DNA of 64,000 nucleotides, taken from the NCBI GenBank assembly GCA_025453495.1, contig JALOQM010000002.1:12680-76679 (forward strand), given 5' to 3'. The notes beneath the pieces were generated by a model that made no database searches, was not told the DNA's origin, and was given only the letters and a program-made list of their open reading frames with translations. Below are positions 6,916-56,720 of this stretch, in pieces. The DNA comes from Minisyncoccota bacterium. GTDB lineage: Bacteria > Patescibacteriota > Minisyncoccia > Phycocordibacterales > UBA9973. Position 1 is the first letter of the stretch, and every line of letters starts with the position of its first letter. A program made the position numbers and the translations under genes.

Positions 6916-8547
6916 ATGTCGATTTATTTGATACACATAATTCGACAATCAAACCAAAAACAATATCATATGAATCCAATCCCGATATTCCAGTCGACTT
7001 CCGCGTTTACCAGGAAGTACCAGAATTACTTTAAAATTATTCTGCTGTTTGCAGTTGCAATTGCAATCAACGCAGCGAGTGTTTATGTTTTTCAGTACCT
7101 CTTATGGAGAGGGGAAGCCGACCCTGATGCAAAAGCAACCGGGACAACTCTCTGGGTAATGTCACTCATACTGTTTTTCGGGTGGGCATGCCTTGAGCTT
7201 ACTAAGATATCAAAGAATCAGCCAAAAGGAAACATTTTTCCATCCTTTGCACTCCAACTTCTCCTAAGTATTATTCTGCATGATGCACTTTCTCCACTTT
7301 CGTTTGAATTACGGACAATGGTGGTCACCTGCACAATTCTCGGTTCAGTAATTTTGAAATTTGGCGGTGACGAAGTAGAACGGACATTATTTCGAAAAAT
7401 TGCTCTGCCTACTATCTTTATTGCAGTTGTCGGATATATTGTCATGTTCAGTAGTACACTAGGAATACTGTTTGGTCTCAATTACTTCTTTCCTGGTTTT
7501 ATAGATCCAACAACAGCAGTATTGTTTTCAGCGCTTATGGGATCCACAGATCCTGCAGCGCTGATGTCGACCCTCACTGGAGTGCCTTTTAAAGAAAGAC
7601 ACAAAAAGCTTGTTGGGGTTAGTGTTGCTGAATCTGCAATTAACGATGCAGTCTGTGCAATTTTTGTGACAGTACTGATAGATATGGCGGTAAAAGGCTA
7701 TGCTGTAGATACTTTTGCAAGTATTTTTTCAGGACTTGCAGAAGTTCATAATCTCGTGCATTTTGGTCTTGAAGTTTCTGTCGGGGTTTTGGCTGGTCTT
7801 GTTGGTTGGGCTTGTATGTGGCTATACGAACGTCATAAGTTTATTCACAATGAGACAAATTTTGACCTCATGATTCCACTTGCTGTTCCATTGTTCACAT
7901 ATCTATTGTCGTGGATATTTTTTGGAAATGGTTTTCTTGCTGCATTTGTTGCTGGCTTGATGGCCAACTATAATCACAACAATCATGGTAAGGAAAAAGA
8001 TCAAAGAAAAAGTGATCAAAAGAAACCGATTTTCGACCACACCCTCAAGGTTATGGATACGAAGATTGAATCAATTGCAAAACCTGTCATCTTCATGATG
8101 GCTGGCCCGTTAATTTCGTTAGGAGATTTGGCAAATACAGCAGGCACAGGATTTGTGATTTCACTTCTCTTTATCTTAGTAGCTCGCCCGCTTGCAGTTT
8201 TTTCATCACTACTGCTTGCGAATGGAGCAACTTATGTGTTGTCGAGAATATTTCCATCACGAGAATATTCTATGATTTCATGGCGTGAAATGTTGTTCAT
8301 GTGTGTTGTTGGAGAGCGAGGTGTTATCCCGATCATTCTAACAGTTGTGACTCTGGCAAAATTACCTCATCTTACAACATTGTTGCCATTTGTCGCTTGG
8401 GTCGTGATCTGGACGCTGACGCTACTTCCTGCTATCACTCCGTGGTGGGCAAGAAAACTTGACCTAACGGAAACAGTCGGAAAGGAGGAAAAGAATGGAG
8501 AAGAGCACAATCATTCACTGGGTGCGGAAGCTTCTGTGCATGTTTAA
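6916..8547 (+). CDS. Cation/proton antiporter, CPA1 (NhaP-like) family
   Basis: ~12 TM segments with an NhaP-like motif LMGSTDPAAL (compare ATDPVAV). 543 aa. Confidence 0.45.
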   Translation: MSIYLIHIIRQSNQKQYHMNPIPIFQSTSAFTRKYQNYFKIILLFAVAIAINAASVYVFQYLLWRGEADPDAKATGTTLWVMSLILFFGWACLELTKISKNQPKGNIFPSFALQLLLSIILHDALSPLSFELRTMVVTCTILGSVILKFGGDEVERTLFRKIALPTIFIAVVGYIVMFSSTLGILFGLNYFFPGFIDPTTAVLFSALMGSTDPAALMSTLTGVPFKERHKKLVGVSVAESAINDAVCAIFVTVLIDMAVKGYAVDTFASIFSGLAEVHNLVHFGLEVSVGVLAGLVGWACMWLYERHKFIHNETNFDLMIPLAVPLFTYLLSWIFFGNGFLAAFVAGLMANYNHNNHGKEKDQRKSDQKKPIFDHTLKVMDTKIESIAKPVIFMMAGPLISLGDLANTAGTGFVISLLFILVARPLAVFSSLLLANGATYVLSRIFPSREYSMISWREMLFMCVVGERGVIPIILTVVTLAKLPHLTTLLPFVAWVVIWTLTLLPAITPWWARKLDLTETVGKEEKNGEEHNHSLGAEASVHV

Positions 8548-8653
8548 TAAATATCTATCAGATCACAGGAACTTTTCTTTCAGACTCGGTTCTCACTTCC
8601 GAAGTACAGAATGGCTTGACAATAAAACAAAAGAAGGCAATTAATGTACATTA

Positions 8654-8690
8654 AAAATCCCCGCATAGAGCGGGGATTTCTTTTTTTTTG
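8654..8690. terminator. Bidirectional rho-independent terminator between the convergent antiporter and DsbA-like genes
   Basis: Hairpin AAATCCCCGC-ATAG-AGCGGGGATTT with T-runs on both strands. Confidence 0.75.
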
Positions 8691-8691
8691 C

Positions 8692-9543
8692 TTATCTAAT
8701 ACCAGCTGACCGGATCGTTTTTTCCATGTCAGTATAGTTGTAGGCACCAGCGTACAGTGTCTCATTGAGATAAAATCCTGGCGTACCTTGCGCATTTAAA
8801 CTTACTGCAATCTCTTTGTCGATAGCAAGTTGTCCATCGTAGCTCCCACCCGCTAGGCATGTCTTGAGCAGGGTGGTGTCGACAGCTCCAGAGAGAAATT
8901 CGACAAATTCTCCTGATCTTGCAGTATCATTTTTGACACTTTCGATAAGAGTAAAGCCAGTATTGCTCATGATACGATCGTGTGCTTCCCAAAATTTCCC
9001 TTGCTCGTGTGCACAGTAGAGTGCTTTCATCGCAACTTCACCGGTCCCATGACCTGGATAGTAGACATAGGCAAATGCTATTTCTCCTTTATCAAGTAAA
9101 TTTTTGAATTCTGGTACTGGTGCTACATACGTGCCACCATCAGCAACAAGTGTAAATCTTGGTCCTGCCATTTTATTGAGTTCACTGTTTTTTCCACCTG
9201 CAACTTGGCAGTACGGGCAGCTCGGATCAGCGATTTCAATGACCGTAAGTTTTGCATCTGGATTGCCGAAGCGAATCGTGCTCTTTGCAAATGCGTCTTT
9301 GACCGCAGCAAGCGATACTTTTTGACCCGCTGGAGCTGCTTGTGGTTGTGCTGGCTGCTTTGTCGTCCCGCCAGTCTCTGTCTGAAATGCCGCATAGCCG
9401 AAAGTAAGCACTGCGACGACAAGTGCAATTGAGGCGAGCATCTTTGCTGCATCAGCCTTTTTAATAGCTTCTTCAAGAGAAGCTGGTTCTGTTTGTTTTT
9501 GTTCCATACACTCTATCGTAGACACAGAGCGTGATAGAGTCAA
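8692..9543 (-). CDS. DsbA-family thiol:disulfide oxidoreductase (thioredoxin fold), membrane-anchored
   Basis: CPYC active-site motif (IADPSCPYCQ), N-terminal TM helix and DsbA-like helical insertion. The start may be the second Met (MEQKQ). Confidence 0.65.
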   Translation of the reverse strand: MTLSRSVSTIECMEQKQTEPASLEEAIKKADAAKMLASIALVVAVLTFGYAAFQTETGGTTKQPAQPQAAPAGQKVSLAAVKDAFAKSTIRFGNPDAKLTVIEIADPSCPYCQVAGGKNSELNKMAGPRFTLVADGGTYVAPVPEFKNLLDKGEIAFAYVYYPGHGTGEVAMKALYCAHEQGKFWEAHDRIMSNTGFTLIESVKNDTARSGEFVEFLSGAVDTTLLKTCLAGGSYDGQLAIDKEIAVSLNAQGTPGFYLNETLYAGAYNYTDMEKTIRSAGIR

Positions 9544-11051
9544 GCTCGCTTTTTTCCTGGTTTCTGTTTTTTTACGAACACGTTATCTGGTGCATGTTTG
9601 AGGAGATATGATCTGATATGCCGACGAGCCATACTTGTCTTTGCATATTCAATCCACTTTGGGACTGGTTTCGCTGACTCTTTGGTGATGATCTCGACAA
9701 TTGCACCATTACGTAAACGACTATCAAGAGACACCATTTTGCCATTCATTTTTGCCCCAAATACATGATCTCCGATATCAGAGTGTATTGCATAGGCAAA
9801 ATCAATCGGTGTGGCATCTTCAGGAAGATCAACAACGTCACCTTTTGGTGTCAGTATAAATATTCGGTCTTTGAAGAAATCCATCGCCAAGTGCTCGAGG
9901 AATTCTTCGGGTTCAGCAATTGATTTTTGTATGTCAGCAAGTTGGGCGAGCCATGCGAATTTCTTTGGTAATTTGTCACCTGGTTGTCGTTCTATATCTT
10001 CCTTGTATGAAAAGTGTGCAGCGATGCCGTATTCGGCTTCATCGTCCATATCTCGTGTGCGGATTTGTATTTCTGCGATCGTACCGTTTGTCGAAACAAC
10101 TGTCGTGTGCAGACTCTGATAGCCATTTGGTTTTGGTAGTGCGATGTAATCTTTGATGCGTCGTGGAACCGGCTTCCAGGTGCTATGTACAAGACCAAGT
10201 ACACGATAACATGCTTCCACGTCTTCTACGATGACACGAAGCGCGACAATATCGAGCACTTTGTCAACATTCATATCGTATTTTTTGAGCTTTCGATAGA
10301 GACTAAACGTATGCTTCACTCGGTACTGCAGTGTAAAGGTCATTCCAAGTTCATTGAGTGCTAATTCAAGAATCTCTTTTATTTCCTCAAGTTGTTTTTG
10401 TGCTTCTGGTGTATGCTCAGCAATTATTTTTTTGGTAAACGCGTATTCTTCTGGATAGGCAAAAGGGAAGGCGTAGTCTTCAAGTTCGCCTTTGAGTTTG
10501 CCCATACCGAGTCGCCCCGCAAGCGGAGCATATATCTGAATTGTTTCAAGCGCGATACGTCTTTGTTTGTCTTGGTGTACATGAGAAAGCGTCGATATGT
10601 TGTGGAGGCGGTCAGCAAGCTTGATCATGAGTACACGTACGTCCTCAGCTACTGCAACAAAGAATTTACGCAATGATTCTACATGGCGATCACGACCACG
10701 GTATTTGAGTGCACCGAGTTTGGTAACTCCTTCAACAAGAAAAAGGATTTCTTTGCCGAATTCTCGTTCGATTTCATCTCGTGTAGTTTCGGTGTCTTCC
10801 AGTGTGTCATGGATAAGTCCAGCAGCTATAGTGCGAGCATCCATACCAAGCGCGGCGAGATTCTTGCCGACGGCGAAGGCGTGTGTGAAGTATGGTGCAC
10901 CGCTTGCTCGAAACTGCCCCTCGTGTTTAGCCTTTGCGAAGTCGTGTGCTTTTTGGATAAGCGCGCACTCATCGTTTTCGGGGTTGCTTCGCATGAGTGC
11001 ATATATCTCGTCGATGGCGGTCATGTGTGTATCGTACGGGACTGGGAACAA
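9540..11051 (-). CDS. rel: Short bifunctional (p)ppGpp synthetase/hydrolase (RelA/SpoT homologue, Rel) lacking the C-terminal ACT domain
   Basis: HD hydrolase domain (HDTLEDT), synthetase domain (SLHTTVV...GTIAEIQIRT) and TGS domain. 503 aa. Confidence 0.8.
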   Translation of the reverse strand: MFPVPYDTHMTAIDEIYALMRSNPENDECALIQKAHDFAKAKHEGQFRASGAPYFTHAFAVGKNLAALGMDARTIAAGLIHDTLEDTETTRDEIEREFGKEILFLVEGVTKLGALKYRGRDRHVESLRKFFVAVAEDVRVLMIKLADRLHNISTLSHVHQDKQRRIALETIQIYAPLAGRLGMGKLKGELEDYAFPFAYPEEYAFTKKIIAEHTPEAQKQLEEIKEILELALNELGMTFTLQYRVKHTFSLYRKLKKYDMNVDKVLDIVALRVIVEDVEACYRVLGLVHSTWKPVPRRIKDYIALPKPNGYQSLHTTVVSTNGTIAEIQIRTRDMDDEAEYGIAAHFSYKEDIERQPGDKLPKKFAWLAQLADIQKSIAEPEEFLEHLAMDFFKDRIFILTPKGDVVDLPEDATPIDFAYAIHSDIGDHVFGAKMNGKMVSLDSRLRNGAIVEIITKESAKPVPKWIEYAKTSMARRHIRSYLLKHAPDNVFVKKQKPGKKRA

Positions 11052-49197: not shown

Positions 49198-50502
49198 ATG
49201 CTAAAACAACTCGCAAAAAAAACCATCGCACATATACTTACTTGGCAAGCAAGGATGGTGCTTGCGCGATATACACCAAACATAGTTGCTATTACAGGCA
49301 ATATTGGCAAGACCTCTGCCAAAGATAGCGTGCATGCAGTGCTTTCTCGTTTTTATACAGTACGGAAAAGTGAAAAGAGCTTCAATAGTGAGATAGGATT
49401 ACCGCTCACTATACTCGGTATACCAAATGCGTGGAATGATCCTCTAGGTTGGGTAAAAAATATCGCATATGGTTTTTGGCTGATCATCAAAAAGCAGCAG
49501 TATCCAGAATGGCTCGTGCTTGAAGTTGGCGCTGATCGTCCTGGTGATATAGCTGCAGTTTCGAAATGGCTCAAATCTGACATCGTAGTGTATACCCGTT
49601 TCGGCAATGTACCGGTCCATGTCGAATTTTTCAAAACACCAGATGAGCTCTTTCGAGAAAAAAGTAATCTTCTCGATGCACTCAAACCAAATGGCACACT
49701 CATACTCAATGCTGACGATGAGCGCATCATGACACTCAAAGCAAAAGCACGGACGAAGGTAGTCACCTTCGGTTTTGATGAACAAGCGATGATTCAGGCC
49801 TCAAACGATACTATTGCATATAGTCAAGCTGGCATGTATGGTGCACCATCTGGGATCGTATTTCGTATAAATTATGGTGGCTCAAGTATCCCAGTACAGA
49901 TTGATGGGGGATTCGGACGAAATCATGTTTACTCTGCACTTGCTGCCCTTGCGATCGCATATGACAGAGAGTGCAATATGCTCACCGCAGTAGAAGCACT
50001 CAAAAATCAAGATCTTCCACCTGGTCGCATGCGAGTTATCGCTGGTGTCAAAGAGTCCGTCGTTATAGATGATACGTACAATGCCGCGCCGCTTGCTACT
50101 GAAACTGCGCTTGAAACACTTGGCTCACTTGCTGTAGAAGGCAGGAAAATCGCAGTCCTTGGAGATATGCTCGAACTTGGCAGGTATACACAGGAGGCAC
50201 ACAAAAAAGTAGGGGAATATGCGGCGCGTCACGCCGACATACTTGTAACAGTCGGTATCCGTTCACGCTATACTGCAGAAGGAGCGCTCAATGCTGGCAT
50301 GAGTGAGAAAAATATTTTTCAATATGAGGATGCTCGTGTAGCAGGGAAATTTGTCGAAGGAGAACTTAGCAAAGGTGATATAGTGCTTGTCAAAGGTTCA
50401 CAGGGTATGCGTATGGAACGTGCGGTAGAAGAAATAATGGCACATCCAGAAGACAAAGAACGACTTCTTGTCAGGCAGGATAGTGAGTGGCGCAAGCGAT
50501 AA
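49198..50502 (+). CDS. murF: UDP-N-acetylmuramoyl-tripeptide--D-alanyl-D-alanine ligase
   Basis: Mur ligase P-loop ITGNIGKTS and MurF-type domains. 434 aa. Confidence 0.8.
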   Translation: MLKQLAKKTIAHILTWQARMVLARYTPNIVAITGNIGKTSAKDSVHAVLSRFYTVRKSEKSFNSEIGLPLTILGIPNAWNDPLGWVKNIAYGFWLIIKKQQYPEWLVLEVGADRPGDIAAVSKWLKSDIVVYTRFGNVPVHVEFFKTPDELFREKSNLLDALKPNGTLILNADDERIMTLKAKARTKVVTFGFDEQAMIQASNDTIAYSQAGMYGAPSGIVFRINYGGSSIPVQIDGGFGRNHVYSALAALAIAYDRECNMLTAVEALKNQDLPPGRMRVIAGVKESVVIDDTYNAAPLATETALETLGSLAVEGRKIAVLGDMLELGRYTQEAHKKVGEYAARHADILVTVGIRSRYTAEGALNAGMSEKNIFQYEDARVAGKFVEGELSKGDIVLVKGSQGMRMERAVEEIMAHPEDKERLLVRQDSEWRKR

Positions 50503-50509
50503 AATAAAA

Positions 50510-50540
50510 AAGCACAAAGACATTATCTCTGTGCTTTTTG
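50510..50540 (+). terminator. Putative terminator after murF
   Basis: AAGCACA...TGTGCTT hairpin with a T-run. Confidence 0.45.
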
Positions 50541-50558
50541 CTTCTAAGCTTTTTCAAT

Positions 50559-50957
50559 TTAAGCAGTTTGCATGGCTGCTTTCATCAGCATGATAGGGAT
50601 GCCATACGGCTTAGCAACATACTGATCTGAATAAATGGTAAAGATCATTTTTTTTACTGGCAGACTCTGCGGAGCTTTCTCACTTCCTGAGGCGTTTTTA
50701 GGTACTGATTCTCGAATGATTTCGAGCACTCCGATGACTATCACACTACCTGTAGACAAATCGGTAGTTTGGAAGATTTGTTTTCCAGTTTCGTCATACT
50801 GAATCATGAATTCTTTTGATGAAACATACTCATTAGCAGGAGTTATTTGTGCCTGCCAAGTATTTTTCTTTTCTTCGTTAGAATTAAAAGAAATAATGAA
50901 CAGTGGTACGTCTTCAAACGTGGAGATCTGTAAAAGTAGTATCTGTTTGTTATTCAT
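50559..50957 (-). CDS. Hypothetical protein
   Basis: 132-aa ORF. No recognised family. Confidence 0.4.
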   Translation of the reverse strand: MNNKQILLLQISTFEDVPLFIISFNSNEEKKNTWQAQITPANEYVSSKEFMIQYDETGKQIFQTTDLSTGSVIVIGVLEIIRESVPKNASGSEKAPQSLPVKKMIFTIYSDQYVAKPYGIPIMLMKAAMQTA

Positions 50958-51066: not shown

Positions 51067-51141
51067 GGCCCTATCGTCTAACGGTTAGGACGGAAGCTTC
51101 TCAAGCTTCAAATCGGGGTTCGATTCCCCGTAGGGTCACCA
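51067..51141 (+). tRNA. tRNA-Glu (anticodon CUC) with encoded CCA
   Basis: Acceptor GGCCCTA/TAGGGTC, anticodon stem GAAGC/GCTTC with loop TTCTCAA, T-loop GGTTCGATTCC, 3' ACCA. Confidence 0.8.
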
Positions 51142-51306
51142 TCAACAGCTAGCACGAGAGGGTTATATTTTCAGAGGATTTTGCAGACGAAAAACTCCAT
51201 CCTTCTCGAATCGAATTTGCTTGGGATCTAAATACAGACCTTTTGAAAGAAGGTTTGTATTTAGAGTAATTGTATAAAAGTGGTCTGAAAATGATAAAAT
51301 TGCTCT

Positions 51307-54300
51307 ATGAGTAGCCAAATTGACAGGAGATACCTGTCGCTTCAGTTTTGGAAGAAAGTACACGAAAAGAATGGCTCTGAATTTCAGAGCTTGTTTTCTG
51401 ATGTGATGGAAAAAGCTGTTCCTGAATTCCAAAAAGTTAGACCCTATGGAAATGTAGGAGACGGAGGCAATGACGGCTACATACCTAGCAAGGGCATCTA
51501 TTACCAGGTTTATGCACCTGAGAACCCTTCTGACAGGAGTACTGAAGCCGCCAAAAAGATGGTGGACGATTTCAATAAGTTAAAGAATAGTGGTTGGAGT
51601 GAGATTTCAAACATAAAGGAATATCACTTTGTTTTTAATGATAAGAACAATGGATTGGATAGTGTTCTTGAGTCAGCACGGGCACAGCTAGTGAGTGAAA
51701 ACCCTGGAATTACTTTCGACACTCTTCTACCTAGGAAGCTTGAAGAAACTTTCTTGAGTCTAAGTAGCGACCAGCTTATCTCACTGGGTTTTGATGTAGA
51801 CCAAAGAAAAGCCTTAGAAGTATCAAGAGAATATCTTAAGGGATTGGAGGCCGAGTTAGATAGAGGTCACGCAAACTTCGTTTCTCAAACTCTAGATACA
51901 ATGCGTGACATTGTTTCGTCACAAGGAGACGAAGCATTGTTGCTTGATTTTGAGCTTATTGAAGCCCGCACGCTTCAGCGTCTTGAAAAAGTGCCTGAGG
52001 CAAGAAAGAAATATGAGGATTTGTATAAAAGATATCCAAGGGATGTCCGAGCACCACTTTATTTGGCAGAACTTTATGCAATAGCTGGCGACTATCCTGA
52101 AAACCAGAGACTGTTAGATGAAGCGAAAGCAATTGATGCTTCCCACTGGCTTTATTTGCTCGAAATCCTGGTAAGAAAGAGTTTTCTTAAGGAGGAAGTC
52201 TCGATAAACGAAATAGATACCGATGCTTTTCCTGCTGACCCAAAGATTAAGTCTGACTATTATCGGCTTTATGGAAATATCCTGAAGCAGTCTGAGGATG
52301 GTGCAAATGCAACAGCTTTTATCGAAAGAGCATTGCATTTTAATCCCGAAAAGATATCCAACTATGATGCAAAGATTGCGATGGATATCAATAATCTTGT
52401 ATCTGAGACCGATGAGGTCAAAAGAAAGAGTAAAACTGAAGAAATCCTTAAGGAAATAAAAGCAACAAACGATAAGTTTAAGGCTTCAGGCAATATCGGT
52501 GTTCGCAATCAGGTCTACTTGAATTATAAGCAGGCAATGCTTCTTGTTCAAAACGAGCGTTTGGACGAGTTCGCTTCGGTGGTTAAGGACACATTTGAGC
52601 TAATACTTTCTTGCCATTTTGATAATGTCATTGACGGCATACTGACCGACCTCCTTGCATTTGCAGGTCTACCGAAAGTGGTATTTGAAAAACTTATTAC
52701 TTATTTAGATAAGGCAGAAAGACCACTATCTGACGGATTTGCAAAGAGAATGTTTTTACAATTCCTCGACCAAGGCACTCTAGAGACCAAGGGTAAAGAA
52801 TTCTACACAAACAAGAAGCTGGATAATTTCGTTGCACTCATAGACGACTTAGAAAAGAAAGACTATGACGGCTTTGTTGCCAAAGTAAAAGACGACCATT
52901 ACTTTGCCGTTATGACTTGTATCGCAATCAACCAGCCTGATTTGCGAAAGAAAATAATTGAGGCTCTTCCTAATACTGGAGAAATACACAAAGACAGACT
53001 CTATTTGCTTTTGGAAGACGAAGCAGGAAATCCTGACGGAGCTTTTGATGTGCTGAAGAAAATGGATTTATCGAAAATTGGATATGTAGACAGCCAAAAA
53101 TTTCTGGGTGTTGCAAAAAGAAAAGAAGCCTGGGACTTTGTCCTAATTTTTGGTGAAAAGATACTCACCTACGAAAAAGAAGCCGATAAGATAGTTCGGA
53201 TTAAGCTTGAGCTATTTACAGCAAACTTCAAACTTGGACGCTTGCCTGAGACGGTAAAGATTGGAGAAGAGATACTTGGAAATAAGGAATATGTATCACT
53301 ATTGGATGAGAAAAATAGGGCTATCCTGTTGTGCCAAACTATCAGTGCACTTCTACGGAGAAATACTGATGTGGATAACCAAAAAGCAAAGGAACTTGTT
53401 GAGACATATAAGGACTATTTCTCTGATTTTGAAAGCAATGCTCTGCTTGTATCAGAAGTATACTTGAGACACAACGATGCAAAGACTGCTCTTGAAGCGG
53501 TTGTTCGTGGTGCAACACTAGCACGAAGACCGTCCCCTGAAGAGTACGCGGGTCTTTTTATGGTCTTTAACAAAATTGGAAATATTCTCGACATAAAACT
53601 AGAAACAGACGGACAGATTGAGAAAGAGAGGTTTGTTAAGTTCAAAGAAGAAGAGAGTTGGTATTTTGTTGGTGACGGAGAGTCCCTAGATGCACAACCT
53701 ATCCCAACAGCAAAACAAGGTGATTATATTGGAAAGAAAGTTGGCGAGAAAATCGCCCTCACTAATGCATATGCTTCTGATAAAAAAGAAAAGACTATAG
53801 AGAATATACTGCCTATAGAAAAATACATTATGTGGCAGACTTACCATCATTTCCAAAAACTATCTCTTGAGGGAATGTGGGATGCGGCTGTTTCAATTGA
53901 AGTACCTCAGACCGAAGATGGAGGGATTGATTTAAAGAATGTCATTGCACTGATGAAAGCTCAGCAGGAGCGTGGTCAGGAATTCTTTAACAATTACTGT
54001 GACCAGAATCTACCTTTTGCTCTCCTTGTTGTTAGCGAGGGAGGGTTCACAAATGCAATCGGAAGAATACAAAATGAACAACGAGGCTTCATTAGAATGA
54101 GCGATGGCACAATGGCAGAATTTAATGCTCAGAAAGATGTTGTAATCAGAGTTCTTGCCAATAAAGAGCCGTTCTATCTGGATGGTACTTCAGCTTGGGT
54201 CCTCGCAGAGACAGGTCTCTTGAGTAAGCTCCATCAGCATTTTCCAAATATTAAGGTGCCCCAATCCGTTATTACTTTGCTTTTAGAAATCAAAGACAAA

Positions 54301-55134
54301 TTGAGCTACACGCCAGGGCAAGCTGGTCAGATGTTCTATTCCAATGGGAAAATCGGATATTCAGAGCTAAACCCAGAAGCACGAGAAAGAGTTGGACAAA
54401 GAATTTCTGAGACCATTGCACTTCTCGAAGCTAATTCAACCAATATCGGAGTCATATCTTCTGCCAGCAAGGAGGATGTATTTTCAGAAAGAGAAATCCC
54501 AGGAACTGTGACAGACGCAACAATCCTCGCACAAAGAGAAAATATTCCTGTTCTCACTGAAGATTTCTTGTACCTGCATATGAATGAGCTTGAGACAAAA
54601 AAGCCAAAGCCTCAGTATTTCTCATCTTTCGTCTTGATGCGTGTGCTTTATGAACAAGGTCGCATTAGTTTCGAGGAGTATTTAGATTTCTTCTCGTATC
54701 TTGCTTCCTATAGGTTTAGGTTTCTTCAAATTACCACTGCGGACCTAGAAAAAGCCCTATTTGGAGATGGTGCAATCACTATTGTGCAACTAGAAAACAT
54801 CAAAAAATTGCATCTGCCAATGACTCTTTCCAGTGAGTACGGTGTAGACCCAAATAATGCACTGAAGTTGGTATTTCAATTTATACTCAAATTGCTTATA
54901 GACGACTCAGTATCTGTAGATGTGATAAAGCAAGTGTTTACAGAAATAATGTCCAAGTACCCAACAGAAAAAAGCAGAACCTTGCTTGGTAGAGCTTTGA
55001 TATCTTCAGCGGTTAAAGTAATTAACGAGAACAGAACCATAGTTGTTGGAGTAAATACACAAGAAAAAATTGATGCTTTGGTGCGAGTAAACGAAAAAAT
55101 AGACACCTTACCATCTATAGTTATTCCTAAATAA
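51307..55134 (+). CDS. Large (1275 aa) multidomain protein: N-terminal Mrr-like restriction-endonuclease-fold domain, central TPR-like alpha-helical repeats, uncharacterised C-terminal region, no NTPase motif. Candidate defence/conflict protein.
   Basis: The N-terminus aligns by eye with the Mrr catalytic domain: SEFQSLFSDVMEKAVPEF vs Mrr SPQEFERLVAELLRAMGY; GNVGDGGNDGY vs GRSGDGGIDGI; EYHFVFND vs GIFITTSSF. The Mrr (Q)xK lysine is replaced (YQVY). aa 200-800 are helical repeat-like. No GxxxxGK[ST] found anywhere. Confidence 0.6.
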   Translation: MSSQIDRRYLSLQFWKKVHEKNGSEFQSLFSDVMEKAVPEFQKVRPYGNVGDGGNDGYIPSKGIYYQVYAPENPSDRSTEAAKKMVDDFNKLKNSGWSEISNIKEYHFVFNDKNNGLDSVLESARAQLVSENPGITFDTLLPRKLEETFLSLSSDQLISLGFDVDQRKALEVSREYLKGLEAELDRGHANFVSQTLDTMRDIVSSQGDEALLLDFELIEARTLQRLEKVPEARKKYEDLYKRYPRDVRAPLYLAELYAIAGDYPENQRLLDEAKAIDASHWLYLLEILVRKSFLKEEVSINEIDTDAFPADPKIKSDYYRLYGNILKQSEDGANATAFIERALHFNPEKISNYDAKIAMDINNLVSETDEVKRKSKTEEILKEIKATNDKFKASGNIGVRNQVYLNYKQAMLLVQNERLDEFASVVKDTFELILSCHFDNVIDGILTDLLAFAGLPKVVFEKLITYLDKAERPLSDGFAKRMFLQFLDQGTLETKGKEFYTNKKLDNFVALIDDLEKKDYDGFVAKVKDDHYFAVMTCIAINQPDLRKKIIEALPNTGEIHKDRLYLLLEDEAGNPDGAFDVLKKMDLSKIGYVDSQKFLGVAKRKEAWDFVLIFGEKILTYEKEADKIVRIKLELFTANFKLGRLPETVKIGEEILGNKEYVSLLDEKNRAILLCQTISALLRRNTDVDNQKAKELVETYKDYFSDFESNALLVSEVYLRHNDAKTALEAVVRGATLARRPSPEEYAGLFMVFNKIGNILDIKLETDGQIEKERFVKFKEEESWYFVGDGESLDAQPIPTAKQGDYIGKKVGEKIALTNAYASDKKEKTIENILPIEKYIMWQTYHHFQKLSLEGMWDAAVSIEVPQTEDGGIDLKNVIALMKAQQERGQEFFNNYCDQNLPFALLVVSEGGFTNAIGRIQNEQRGFIRMSDGTMAEFNAQKDVVIRVLANKEPFYLDGTSAWVLAETGLLSKLHQHFPNIKVPQSVITLLLEIKDKLSYTPGQAGQMFYSNGKIGYSELNPEARERVGQRISETIALLEANSTNIGVISSASKEDVFSEREIPGTVTDATILAQRENIPVLTEDFLYLHMNELETKKPKPQYFSSFVLMRVLYEQGRISFEEYLDFFSYLASYRFRFLQITTADLEKALFGDGAITIVQLENIKKLHLPMTLSSEYGVDPNNALKLVFQFILKLLIDDSVSVDVIKQVFTEIMSKYPTEKSRTLLGRALISSAVKVINENRTIVVGVNTQEKIDALVRVNEKIDTLPSIVIPK

Positions 55135-55173
55135 TTCTGACCCTAGTATCATAATACTGTGTTTCAGAGAATT

Positions 55174-55713
55174 TTATTTTAAAAATATTTTTTTGCTCAG
55201 TAATACAATTCCGGTCTTTAGGCATCGTAAAAATTCTCGCTTCTCATACATCGACCCCTCAATCAAAATAAACTTCGCATAGTTGCGTATGTCGATATCT
55301 TTCACCGCAATAGGAGTTTTTGTTCCTAACAACATCTGCTCAAACTTCTTAAACCGTTGAACTTCTGCCGTGATCTTCTCCCTCATGGGTACAGTTTGTA
55401 TTTCCAGATCGTCCATGAGGTCTTGAAGTTGTGCCACCAAGTCTTCTTCGTTTATGAATCCGCACGGACAGTCCTGATCTCTCGTTCTAGTACATTTGTA
55501 ATAAACATAGCGGTTCACGTTGCCATTCTTCTGATGTTTGAATTTCTCATCAGCGGTGATGCCTGATCCGCATAGTCCGCAGGTCATAATCTTGGTGAAA
55601 GCGAACTCTTTCTGTGACGATCTTGGCTCTAGCGTTTGGCTCTTTATCTTTTCTTGAACGAGATCAAAAAGTTCTTTGGTGATGATTGGTTCGCGGGCAC
55701 CGTCATGCGCTTA
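55174..55713 (-). pseudogene. 5'-truncated large serine recombinase (integrase). Only the C-terminal linker, recombinase zinc beta-ribbon and coiled coil remain.
   Basis: In-frame translation AHDGAREPIITKELFDLVQEKIKSQ...KEFAFTKIMTCGLCGSGITADEKF...NRYVYYKCTRTRDQDCPCGF matches the Zn-ribbon recombinase domain of large serine recombinases. The frame opens straight after a TAA at 55714-55716, and there is no room for the ~300-aa catalytic N-terminus before the next gene. Confidence 0.65.
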
Positions 55714-55808
55714 TAATTTCTCCACCTGGGTCAAACAGTCGGCTATCTTCGCGACCCAAATGGCTTCTTAGTAGAGATATGCACAAAGATACAGTAAAAG
55801 CTGTTTTA

Positions 55809-56720
55809 CTAGTGTTTACTGTAATATTTCTTTTTTATGTCCGATAGCGCAGAATGTAAATCGTCGAATGCGAATGTGAAACCAGCCTTCTTTATTTTCG
55901 TCGAATCGATTTTCTGTCCACCTAAAAGAGCATGTGCAAATTCTCCCTTCACCATTTGTGCGATAAAAGCGGGGATAGGTAGAGTCCAGAAAAAGCCAAA
56001 CACCTTTTGAATACTTCGCATAAATGTTTTTTGTGACAGCGGAGTTCCTGTAGCGGTATTGTAGACACCAGTCATTTTTTTATTTTCAAGTGCAAAGATG
56101 TATTGAGAAACCAAATCTTCCACATGCACCCATGGCATATATTGCGTGCCATTTCCAAAGTAGCCGCCGAGGCCAAGTTTGAAGAGCTTGAGCATCTCCG
56201 ACAAGATGCCACCTCGTCCTAGTACATGCGCAGTCCGAAGGGCGACAACTCTCGTCCCCATTTTTTCAAAACTAAAAGCTTCTTTTTCCCAATCAACACA
56301 AATCTGCGCTAGGAAGTCATTACCCGGGGAAGCATTTTCATCTAGGGCTATATCTTTGCCGTTTCCATAGAATCCAACAGCTGAGGCAGATACAAATACT
56401 TCTGGTGTGAGTGCTGCTTTTTCAAAAGACAGACGCAGATTTTTTGTTGTCTCAATGCGACTGTCTCGTAATAGTTTCTTGTACTCTTTTGTCCATTTAC
56501 CAGAAATCGGTGCACCTGCGAGGTGTATGATTCCATACACGCCATCCAAGATTTCTTTGGAGATAAGTTCTCTATGAAGCGCGATAGTGTAAAAGTGCAC
56601 CTTTTCATTTTTACTAGGCACAATGTCAATAACAGAGACTACATAGCCTTTTTCCAAAAGCCGTTCTGATAAGATGCTCCCAACAAATCCTGAACCACCA
56701 GTGATAATAATTTTTTTCAT
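55809..56720 (-). CDS. NAD-dependent epimerase/dehydratase family protein (YfcH-like, SDR39U1) with a DUF1731-like C-terminus
   Basis: GGSGFVGS Rossmann motif and a YfcH-like C-terminal segment. 303 aa. Confidence 0.7.
   Translation of the reverse strand: MKKIIITGGSGFVGSILSERLLEKGYVVSVIDIVPSKNEKVHFYTIALHRELISKEILDGVYGIIHLAGAPISGKWTKEYKKLLRDSRIETTKNLRLSFEKAALTPEVFVSASAVGFYGNGKDIALDENASPGNDFLAQICVDWEKEAFSFEKMGTRVVALRTAHVLGRGGILSEMLKLFKLGLGGYFGNGTQYMPWVHVEDLVSQYIFALENKKMTGVYNTATGTPLSQKTFMRSIQKVFGFFWTLPIPAFIAQMVKGEFAHALLGGQKIDSTKIKKAGFTFAFDDLHSALSDIKKKYYSKH

Follow-up and report, generated by a model that had tools for sequence, protein, structure and literature searches.

The window, a stretch of 64,000 nucleotides from a Paceibacterota (CPR) genome, carries an intact tRNA-Glu(CUC) gene at positions 51067-51141 of the forward strand (ARAGORN; Rfam RF00005 at 63 bits), which is the attachment-site landmark at the locus. 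On the same strand lies an intact open reading frame (ORF) of 1275 amino acids (51307-55134), and the coordinates of both features bear out the gap of 165 nt that was reported between them in the original prediction. The product is a REase-TPR-GreA/B-C-PIN (TGP) protein. Flanking the TGP gene are ORFs for a Mur ligase and for a protein of 132 aa, the remnant of a recombinase, and an ORF of 303 aa that was read as an epimerase gene and ends at 55809. The 132-aa upstream ORF (50559-50957, reverse strand) was considered as a partner gene and rejected, having no family match and being absent from relatives.

The recombinase remnant (55174-55710, reverse strand) corresponds to the last ~178 codons of a large serine recombinase gene. 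Frame analysis extended its ORF (55174-55587) in frame upstream to 55710, beyond which stop codons occur. Zn_ribbon_recom was the sole domain matched (E 1.2e-9), while no Resolvase catalytic domain was found and most of the Recombinase domain was also lost; a further match was obtained to the integrase PHROG 95 (profile positions 378-468 of 651). The 5' truncation assumed for this gene downstream of the ORF is thus supported by both the exclusive zinc ribbon match and the upstream stops. In the related locus L001, which harbors a homologous TGP gene, an intact serine recombinase is present at the same tRNA, and the two recombinases are distant kin only (E 0.012). The tRNA-Glu of the window shares 95% identity with the tRNA-Glu upstream of the L001 gene, and in L003-L005 its last 21 nt precede the homologue as a stand-alone fragment. 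Between the window and L001, identity is 90% for the TGP protein but no more than 44% and 51% for the neighbouring MurF and PBP. Because of this difference, the TGP gene is considered to have moved horizontally relative to the core genes, and together with the recombinase remnant the values sustain the mobile-element scar that had been proposed at the tRNA. The GC content of the TGP region is only slightly lower. Neither a second copy of the tRNA 3' end (attR) nor an att direct repeat was found within the window, and an empty-site search via the downstream epimerase returned no close relatives, the best match being 42% identical and from Bacteroidota. As a result, cargo of an island and a resident beside an integration hotspot are inseparable here.

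The N-terminal region of the protein (aa 1-175; 51307-51831, forward strand, as are all following domains) is predicted to be an effector domain of the PD-(D/E)xK fold whose core is non-canonical, and the alpha-beta-beta-beta-alpha-beta core fold of PD-(D/E)xK/Mrr-like nucleases is present in the prediction. Its conserved core consists of E25, D52, D56, Q67-x-Y69, K84 and N111-D112-K113. The expected GDGGxDG motif was recovered as GDGGNDG at aa 51-57, and the replacement of the canonical lysine by tyrosine likewise held, with Q67-V68-Y69 occupying the Mrr-type QxK position; the catalytic D...(D/E/Q)-x-K signature is absent, its K position being Y69. D52, D56, Q67, K84 and N111 do not vary among 121 family members, and E25, D112 and K113 are almost fully conserved (K113 in 120 of them). 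Y69, found in 120 of the 121 members, therefore characterizes the family and does not indicate decay. Nuclease activity of the REase-fold domain is uncertain because the canonical lysine is missing (Q-x-Y), and judged by sequence an alternative lysine (K84 or K113) may substitute for it. From the proposed Mrr-type nuclease the predicted REase fold remained, but sequence models did not support the assignment to Mrr, as no Pfam match to Mrr_cat or Cap4 was obtained at E <= 1. In PADLOC, the only match was LmuA to the N-terminus (E 1.1e-6), with no model for the whole protein. The module 'GDGGNDG...YYQVY...NDK' is common to more than 1000 protein clusters of TGP proteins, ABC-3C/Lamassu-type CTD10 effectors and P2-like phage morons; recurrence of the REase module was seen in ABC-3C CTD10/LmuA-like effectors and in one P2-like phage moron.

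The effector domain is followed by a TPR/helical-repeat region (aa 176-770; 51832-53616). TPR_16 matched at aa 219-277 (E 2e-5) and TPR_19 with an E value of 0.004, both under the Pfam gathering score, TIGR02917 gave a partial match at aa 227-354, and most homologues carry precomputed TPR family assignments. These matches are in line with the ~600 aa of TPR-like helical repeats that had been suggested. The subsequent ~450 aa, initially described as uncharacterized alpha/beta sequence, were resolved as known domains, a GreA/B-C-like domain and a PIN domain. The GreA/B C-terminal-like domain (aa ~771-836; 53617-53814), a predicted RNA polymerase docking module, is placed by the prediction between the repeats and the PIN domain, and the sequence-level GreA match of the protein is not significant. 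A helical linker or bundle (aa 837-955; 53815-54171) leads to the TGP-type PIN domain (aa 956-1100; 54172-54606), which passes the curated threshold of Pfam PF20698 ('PIN domain associated with the TPR-GreAB-C-PIN system') and harbors a complete acidic site (D959, E968, D1070, T1084-E1085-D1086) with four conserved acidic residues. The C-terminal helical domain (aa 1101-1275; 54607-55131), delimited on the model, belongs to the constant core and evolves faster than any other part of the protein (dN 0.14-0.16 vs 0.03-0.08 elsewhere). As stated in the original prediction, the protein has no Walker A motif (regular expression) and no NTPase family in Pfam or NCBIfam; the motif occurs in just 1 of 120 homologues.

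More than 300 full-length homologues of ~1270 aa with 41-90% identity exist. In comparison with the L001 and L003 copies, dN/dS is 0.04-0.06 in every domain, indicating that the TGP gene is functional. By tblastn, the Fluoribacter plasmid protein WP_012187551.1 was found, which aligns over aa 419-1274 (E 2e-57), the C-terminal helical domain aligning through to its end, while its N-terminus differs and is HNH-like with a weak HNH_2 match; the effector is swapped on a constant core. A C-terminal profile homology search for TGPs with other N-termini returned the same ~1270-aa subfamily only. PDB sequence searches with the whole protein and the family profile gave only weak TPR noise and no related solved structure, and no match to PHROGs was obtained for the 1275-aa protein. 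The homologues are distributed patchily over Patescibacteria, Acidobacteriota, Legionellaceae plasmids and Asgard archaea. One is located in a prophage beside an HpaII restriction-modification (R-M) system, one between integrases and one adjoining a PemK toxin-like gene (weak Pfam match), and the homologue of an Asgard archaeon adjoins Cas4, PLD-SNF2 and an Eco57I-type enzyme. Homologues in mobile or defence contexts, which a defence role had led to expect, were therefore found in prophage, integrase-flanked, plasmid and R-M/Cas4 settings. Across nine neighbourhoods no shared gene, cognate antitoxin or conserved neighbour was detected, and the TGP gene is thus stand-alone.

The architecture corresponds to that of the TGP systems (Kaur, Iyer, Burroughs & Aravind, eLife 2021; PMC8195603; PF20698), in which a constant TPR + GreA/B-C + PIN core in this order is combined with a variable N-terminal effector including 'DNase (REase, HNH)'. 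For the family itself, RNA polymerase binding, predicted in that study, and transcript cleavage by the PIN domain are hypotheses. Shared features further include the stand-alone gene without conserved neighbours and the spread in bacteria with sporadic occurrence in archaea. No architectural difference was seen; the window copy differs in being located in a CPR (Paceibacterota) genome, in its REase core with D...QxY instead of D...(D/E/Q)xK and in the ~175-aa helical domain after the PIN domain, which is unnamed in the published description. Agp, the TGP member of the Bab/Agp system of E. coli ECOR25, mediates anti-phage abortive infection and is required against T5, and a point mutation in its GreA/B-C domain abolishes anti-T5 abortive infection, while no Bab-independent activity of Agp was found (Ibarlosa et al., bioRxiv 2024, 10.1101/2024.11.07.622273). 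Compared by description, Agp activates the separate pore-forming partner Bab through an N-terminal amyloid (BASS11) motif, whereas in the window protein a nuclease-fold effector is fused to the core and a partner gene is lacking.

A homologous N-terminal REase-fold module (GDxGNDG...YYQVYAPE...NDK, 37-44% identity to ~310-aa CTD10 proteins) is found in ABC-3C/Lamassu-type effectors (PADLOC LmuA PDLC03852, PDC-M68A; Pfam CTD10 PF20275). According to the family descriptions, those proteins consist of the module and a CTD adaptor and work with an ABC/SMC ATPase, whereas the window protein has no CTD10 domain and no adjacent ABC/SMC gene, so that only the effector domain is shared. Upx (Nat Commun 2026, PMC13099982; PMC13601566), a single-protein dual PD-(D/E)xK defence protein that is auto-inhibited and released by a phage protein, follows a similar principle, being one ~1200-aa polypeptide with an atypical N-terminal PD-(D/E)xK core and no NTPase. 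Avs/STAND proteins with Mrr-like or other nuclease effectors differ from the window protein, which has GreA/B-C and PIN domains and neither a STAND NTPase nor Walker A, and the separation from nuclease-NTPase-TPR architectures drawn earlier was upheld. GreA, GreB and Gfh1 differ as well, since the window protein is devoid of the N-terminal coiled coil reaching the active site and its Gre-like domain is embedded in 1275 aa. This coiled coil carries the catalytic function of Gre.

The ORF very probably encodes an intact TGP conflict protein of the REase-fold effector subfamily, beside tRNA-Glu(CUC) and either cargo of or neighbour to a decayed serine-recombinase integrative element in this Paceibacterota (CPR) genome. 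The 1275-aa protein is a genuine candidate for defence, but of a kind already known. It had been put forward as a previously undescribed single-protein defence system composed of an Mrr-like nuclease, a TPR sensor and an unknown C-terminus without NTPase. Nuclease fold, repeats and missing Walker A are all real, and the N-terminal LmuA match as the only PADLOC hit and the lack of a related solved structure are compatible with novelty; yet this is very improbable and the label 'undescribed' had to be given up, because the C-terminal region contains a GreA/B-C-like and a PIN domain, the latter passing PF20698, the REase-effector architecture is already contained in PMC8195603 and the family member Agp is validated. 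The GreA/B-C-like fold and the PIN RNase domain would suit a housekeeping transcription or RNA-quality-control factor, namely a Gre-like factor of RNA polymerase that is also an RNase. The patchy occurrence across Patescibacteria, Acidobacteriota, Legionellaceae plasmids and Asgard archaea, the horizontal transfer relative to core genes, the prophage, R-M and integrase contexts and the missing Gre N-terminal coiled coil make such a role extremely improbable.

Two other explanations concern the nuclease domains. With QxY in its core, the N-terminal REase-like domain could be dead and serve as DNA or ligand sensor or oligomerisation module, leaving the PIN domain as the only catalytic effector. 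This is rather unlikely given the invariant D52, D56, Q67, K84 and N111, the nearly invariant E25, D112 and K113 and the strong purifying selection; such conservation suits a metal-binding active site whose lysine has moved, ABC-3C CTD10 proteins have the same module in the effector position, and Upx keeps nuclease activity with an atypical, simplified core (PMC13099982). Two potentially toxic nuclease domains and a location always on or beside mobile DNA, often adjoining toxin-antitoxin pairs (PemK-like, GNAT/DUF1778), might point to a selfish module for addiction or inter-element competition, which stabilizes its mobile element instead of providing anti-phage immunity. However, no cognate antitoxin or conserved neighbour occurs in nine contexts, the mobile element of the window is decayed and the gene still under strong purifying selection, and the validated relative Agp acts against phage, which renders this idea improbable.

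For the TGP conflict protein, a likely mechanism can be drawn from the model that Kaur et al. (2021) give for the family, together with the Bab/Agp experiments. The GreA/B-C-like domain would dock on the rim of the RNA polymerase secondary channel (beta' coiled coil), the TPR and helical parts might sense a phage-induced change or mediate assembly, and the PIN domain would cleave RNA. The N-terminal REase-fold module could then act as lethal DNA-directed effector, leading to abortive infection without an NTPase switch. By analogy to Agp the window protein may have anti-phage activity, and it may engage RNA polymerase as predicted in PMC8195603. More speculatively, and with rather little confidence, the N-terminal module would be no ordinary DNase but an effector with a different chemistry or target, and REase-TGPs would be NTPase-free, RNA-polymerase-docked immune sensors spreading among deeply diverged CPR bacteria via the tRNA-Glu(CUC) hotspot. 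In our reading, a predicted TGP immune protein encoded by a single gene of 3.8 kb, acquired horizontally at a tRNA-Glu hotspot, is maintained by strong purifying selection in an episymbiotic CPR bacterium with a small genome. The locus adds a TGP member and its context, no new principle, and the hypothesis of RNA polymerase surveillance by TGPs makes the family a worthwhile experimental target.

The 165-nt spacer contains a near-perfect inverted repeat, detected by repeat search and not assigned to a strand, with arms of 16 nt at 51227-51242 and 51250-51265 (15/16, 94% complementary) and a 7-nt loop. The palindrome indicated for the spacer therefore exists, but the coordinates given for it (51216-51258) were off. 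It forms the dominant hairpin when the spacer RNA is folded (z = -2.6). No T-tract is present, promoter and terminator scans showed no promoter signal above chance, and an Rfam search of the palindrome gave no family. It may serve as an operator, or as a hairpin that insulates or resembles a terminator. Its sequence is not kept in L001, and L003 carries an unrelated palindrome with 22-nt arms at the equivalent position.

A curated Pfam model for the PIN domain of TPR-GreA/B-C-PIN (TGP) proteins (PF20698, 'PIN domain associated with the TPR-GreAB-C-PIN system') matched aa 957-1089 of the 1275-aa protein encoded at 51307-55134 (+) with 49.1 bits (curated cutoff 27.8 bits), and TPR models matched aa 219-279. 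The structure predicted for aa 760-1275 (pLDDT 92.4) includes a helical linker and a C-terminal helical domain, and each of the PIN acidic residues (D959, E968, D1070, D1086) is retained in no fewer than 120 of the 121 sequences. The C-terminal ~450 aa, which the original prediction had described as uncharacterised alpha/beta sequence, were therefore resolved as GreA/B-C, PIN and a helical tail. A search of the protein for Walker A motifs revealed none, bearing out the proposed absence of an NTPase. The sole PADLOC match was to the LmuA model (aa 20-153, E 1.1e-6).

The architecture, initially thought to be undescribed, is thus known: a TPR-GreA/B-C-PIN system in which the N-terminal EAD10 is swapped in other members for one of 13 effectors, 'such as DNase (REase, HNH)', has been reported (Kaur et al., PMC8195603). 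It was named TGP by Ibarlosa et al. (bioRxiv 10.1101/2024.11.07.622273), who showed for Agp, a TGP protein of E. coli, that with its partner Bab it provides resistance to T5 by abortive infection and that signalling is lost when GreA/B-C carries a point mutation. The protein studied here is a new member of this family and belongs to the REase-effector subfamily. A 1280-aa homologue is encoded on pLD-TEX-KL, a plasmid of Fluoribacter dumoffii. The alignment covers aa 419-1274 of the protein studied here (25% identity, E 2e-57), while the N-terminus of the plasmid protein is unrelated to the head analysed here and gave a weak HNH_2 match, which directly verifies the 'variable head, constant core' property of the family.

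Compared with more than 300 homologues of ~1270 aa the gene is full length. dN/dS was 0.041 against the closest homologue (P0001, locus L001) and 0.057 against the 86%-identical protein of locus L003, and stayed below 0.09 in every domain. In both comparisons dN of the C-terminal helical domain was ~3 times that of the rest of the protein. This domain (54607-55131, aa 1101-1275), which may form a specificity or sensor surface, is conserved as far as the Fluoribacter homologue; the published family description leaves the helical domain after PIN unnamed.

The motifs ascribed to the N-terminal domain were present, with GDGGNDG at aa 51-57 and Q67-V68-Y69 at the site of QxK in Mrr-type enzymes, and the predicted nuclease fold was upheld. 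Invariant residues were G48, G51, D52, G54, N55, D56, G57, G63, Y65, Q67, P71, K84, W97 and N111, and the lysine position is occupied by Y69 in 120 of the 121 family members. Because the core is non-canonical in this respect, the REase-like head is regarded as a putative nuclease; K84 or K113 may stand in for the absent lysine. When aa 1-175 were used in a phmmer search of 1.84 billion representatives, 1004 clusters were obtained that fell into two length classes. Proteins of ~1260-1290 aa were TGP proteins, and those of ~300-350 aa carried Pfam CTD10 of ABC-3C systems and matched PADLOC PDC-M68A and LmuA. A large class of ~310 aa that combines this type of module with CTD10 (PDC-M68A) includes P0196, P0202, P0207, P0210, P0215 and P0235. 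As the CTD10 proteins bear the same module, the REase core in its QxY form is an effector type common to two conflict-system families, and the sharing of this non-canonical core with ABC-3C effectors is a residual point of interest.

The same motifs were found in a 347-aa protein (41% identity) that occurs as a moron in P2-like Klebsiella phages, between tail-morphogenesis and baseplate genes. In Klebsiella phage ST147-VIM1phi7.1 (MK416018.1; locus L010, 4968-6011) this hypothetical protein, QBQ71558.1, has the baseplate V gene on one side and a virion-morphogenesis gene on the other. It contains a GDxGNDG...YYQVYAPE nuclease-like module, matches PADLOC LmuA and is probably a phage-borne defence moron. 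The occurrence of the module in TGP, CTD10 and phage-moron proteins indicates that the N-terminal domain is an effector module common to known conflict systems.

Of the more distant homologues, one lies within a prophage with an HpaII R-M pair alongside, another has a tyrosine integrase on either side, together with methylases and a NYN nuclease, and a third adjoins a gene that matches PemK toxin weakly. A fourth, on a Promethearchaeota contig, neighbours Cas4, a PLD-SNF2 protein and an Eco57I/MmeI-type enzyme, and others are close to transposases. The Fluoribacter homologue with the HNH-like N-terminus (WP_012187551.1; NC_009966.1, locus L031, 3088-7518) is carried by a conjugative plasmid of Legionellaceae, where its gene immediately follows that of a small recombinase of the resolvase type and has a GNAT/DUF1778 toxin-antitoxin pair nearby. 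Across the contexts examined no conserved neighbour was found, in agreement with the family description, according to which the genes mostly stand alone (Kaur et al., PMC8195603). A role in defence, as originally proposed, is the reading we retain. Drawing on the literature model and the domain identities, we commit to a mechanism in which the protein would act as an NTPase-free sensor-effector, its GreA/B-C domain docking on RNA polymerase, PIN cleaving RNA and the REase-like head serving as the lethal effector.

The gene starts exactly 165 nt 3' of tRNA-Glu(ctc) (51067-51141, +; Rfam tRNA 63 bits) and is followed by a large serine recombinase fragment (55174-55587, -, in-frame reading to 55710; Zn_ribbon_recom E 1.2e-9). 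Only the zinc-ribbon and C-terminal part are retained (PHROG 95 integrase, positions 378-468 of 651), and the 5' half is absent, since the next gene ends at 55809. P0001 (90% aa, 82% nt identity) is encoded in Candidatus Paceibacterota assembly GCA_036400935.1, likewise downstream of an rsmH-PBP-murF cluster and a 95%-identical tRNA-Glu(ctc). Whereas the TGP proteins are 90% identical, MurF and PBP of the two genomes share 44% and 51% identity, respectively, so that, set against the core genome, the TGP gene has been transferred horizontally and has ended up beside the same tRNA. Together with the tRNA and the recombinase remnant, this bears out the suspected mobile-element scar. That the gene has spread at a single tRNA site between CPR bacteria so deeply diverged is a further point of interest.

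In L001 the tRNA and the TGP gene are separated by an insertion of a recombinase, small ORFs and an HTH gene (6923-9963), an arrangement resembling a mini integrative element of ~3 kb at the same site, which in the window is empty. This recombinase, a large serine enzyme preserved intact at 570 aa (Resolvase domain E 2e-11), has a 3' end that overlaps that of tRNA-Glu(ctc), and it is a different gene from the window remnant. In L003-L005, the loci with the 86%-identical protein, the tRNA is absent and the genes downstream of TGP differ again. Located 113 nt before the conserved leader of TGP is a stretch of 21 nt identical to the tRNA-Glu 3' end, with the rest of the tRNA missing (L003 383-403; L004/L005 99-119); this fragment is att-like, and the assemblies end just upstream. 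A search of the window for a repeat of the tRNA 3' end found none. Given the L001 element, the 21-nt fragment, the different remnant in the window and its single tRNA 3' end, we read the site as a tRNA-Glu hotspot of repeated integration and decay, where the TGP gene may be cargo of the element now decayed or may reside next to the hotspot.

The palindrome predicted in the 165-nt spacer exists, but not at 51216-51258; its 16-nt arms (15/16 paired, 7-nt loop) lie at 51227-51242 and 51250-51265. It forms the dominant hairpin of the spacer upon RNA folding and lacks a T-tract, and promoter, terminator and Rfam scans gave no match. Its sequence differs in relatives, L003 carrying an unrelated palindrome with 22-nt arms at the equivalent position. 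A structural role is possible, e.g. as an operator or in insulating the TGP gene from tRNA transcription.

Between murF and the tRNA lies a 132-aa ORF (50559-50957, -), for which neither Pfam nor PHROGs gave a match and which L001 lacks. The 303-aa ORF beyond the recombinase remnant (55809-56720, -) was read as NAD-dependent epimerase-like, an annotation made without family search. Its best match (42% identical) is from Weeksellaceae (Bacteroidota), no close relative was present among GTDB species representatives, and it may have been acquired horizontally too. Directly 3' of the murF stop codon, an inverted repeat with 21-nt arms (50500-50546) probably serves as terminator for the cluster of cell-wall genes.
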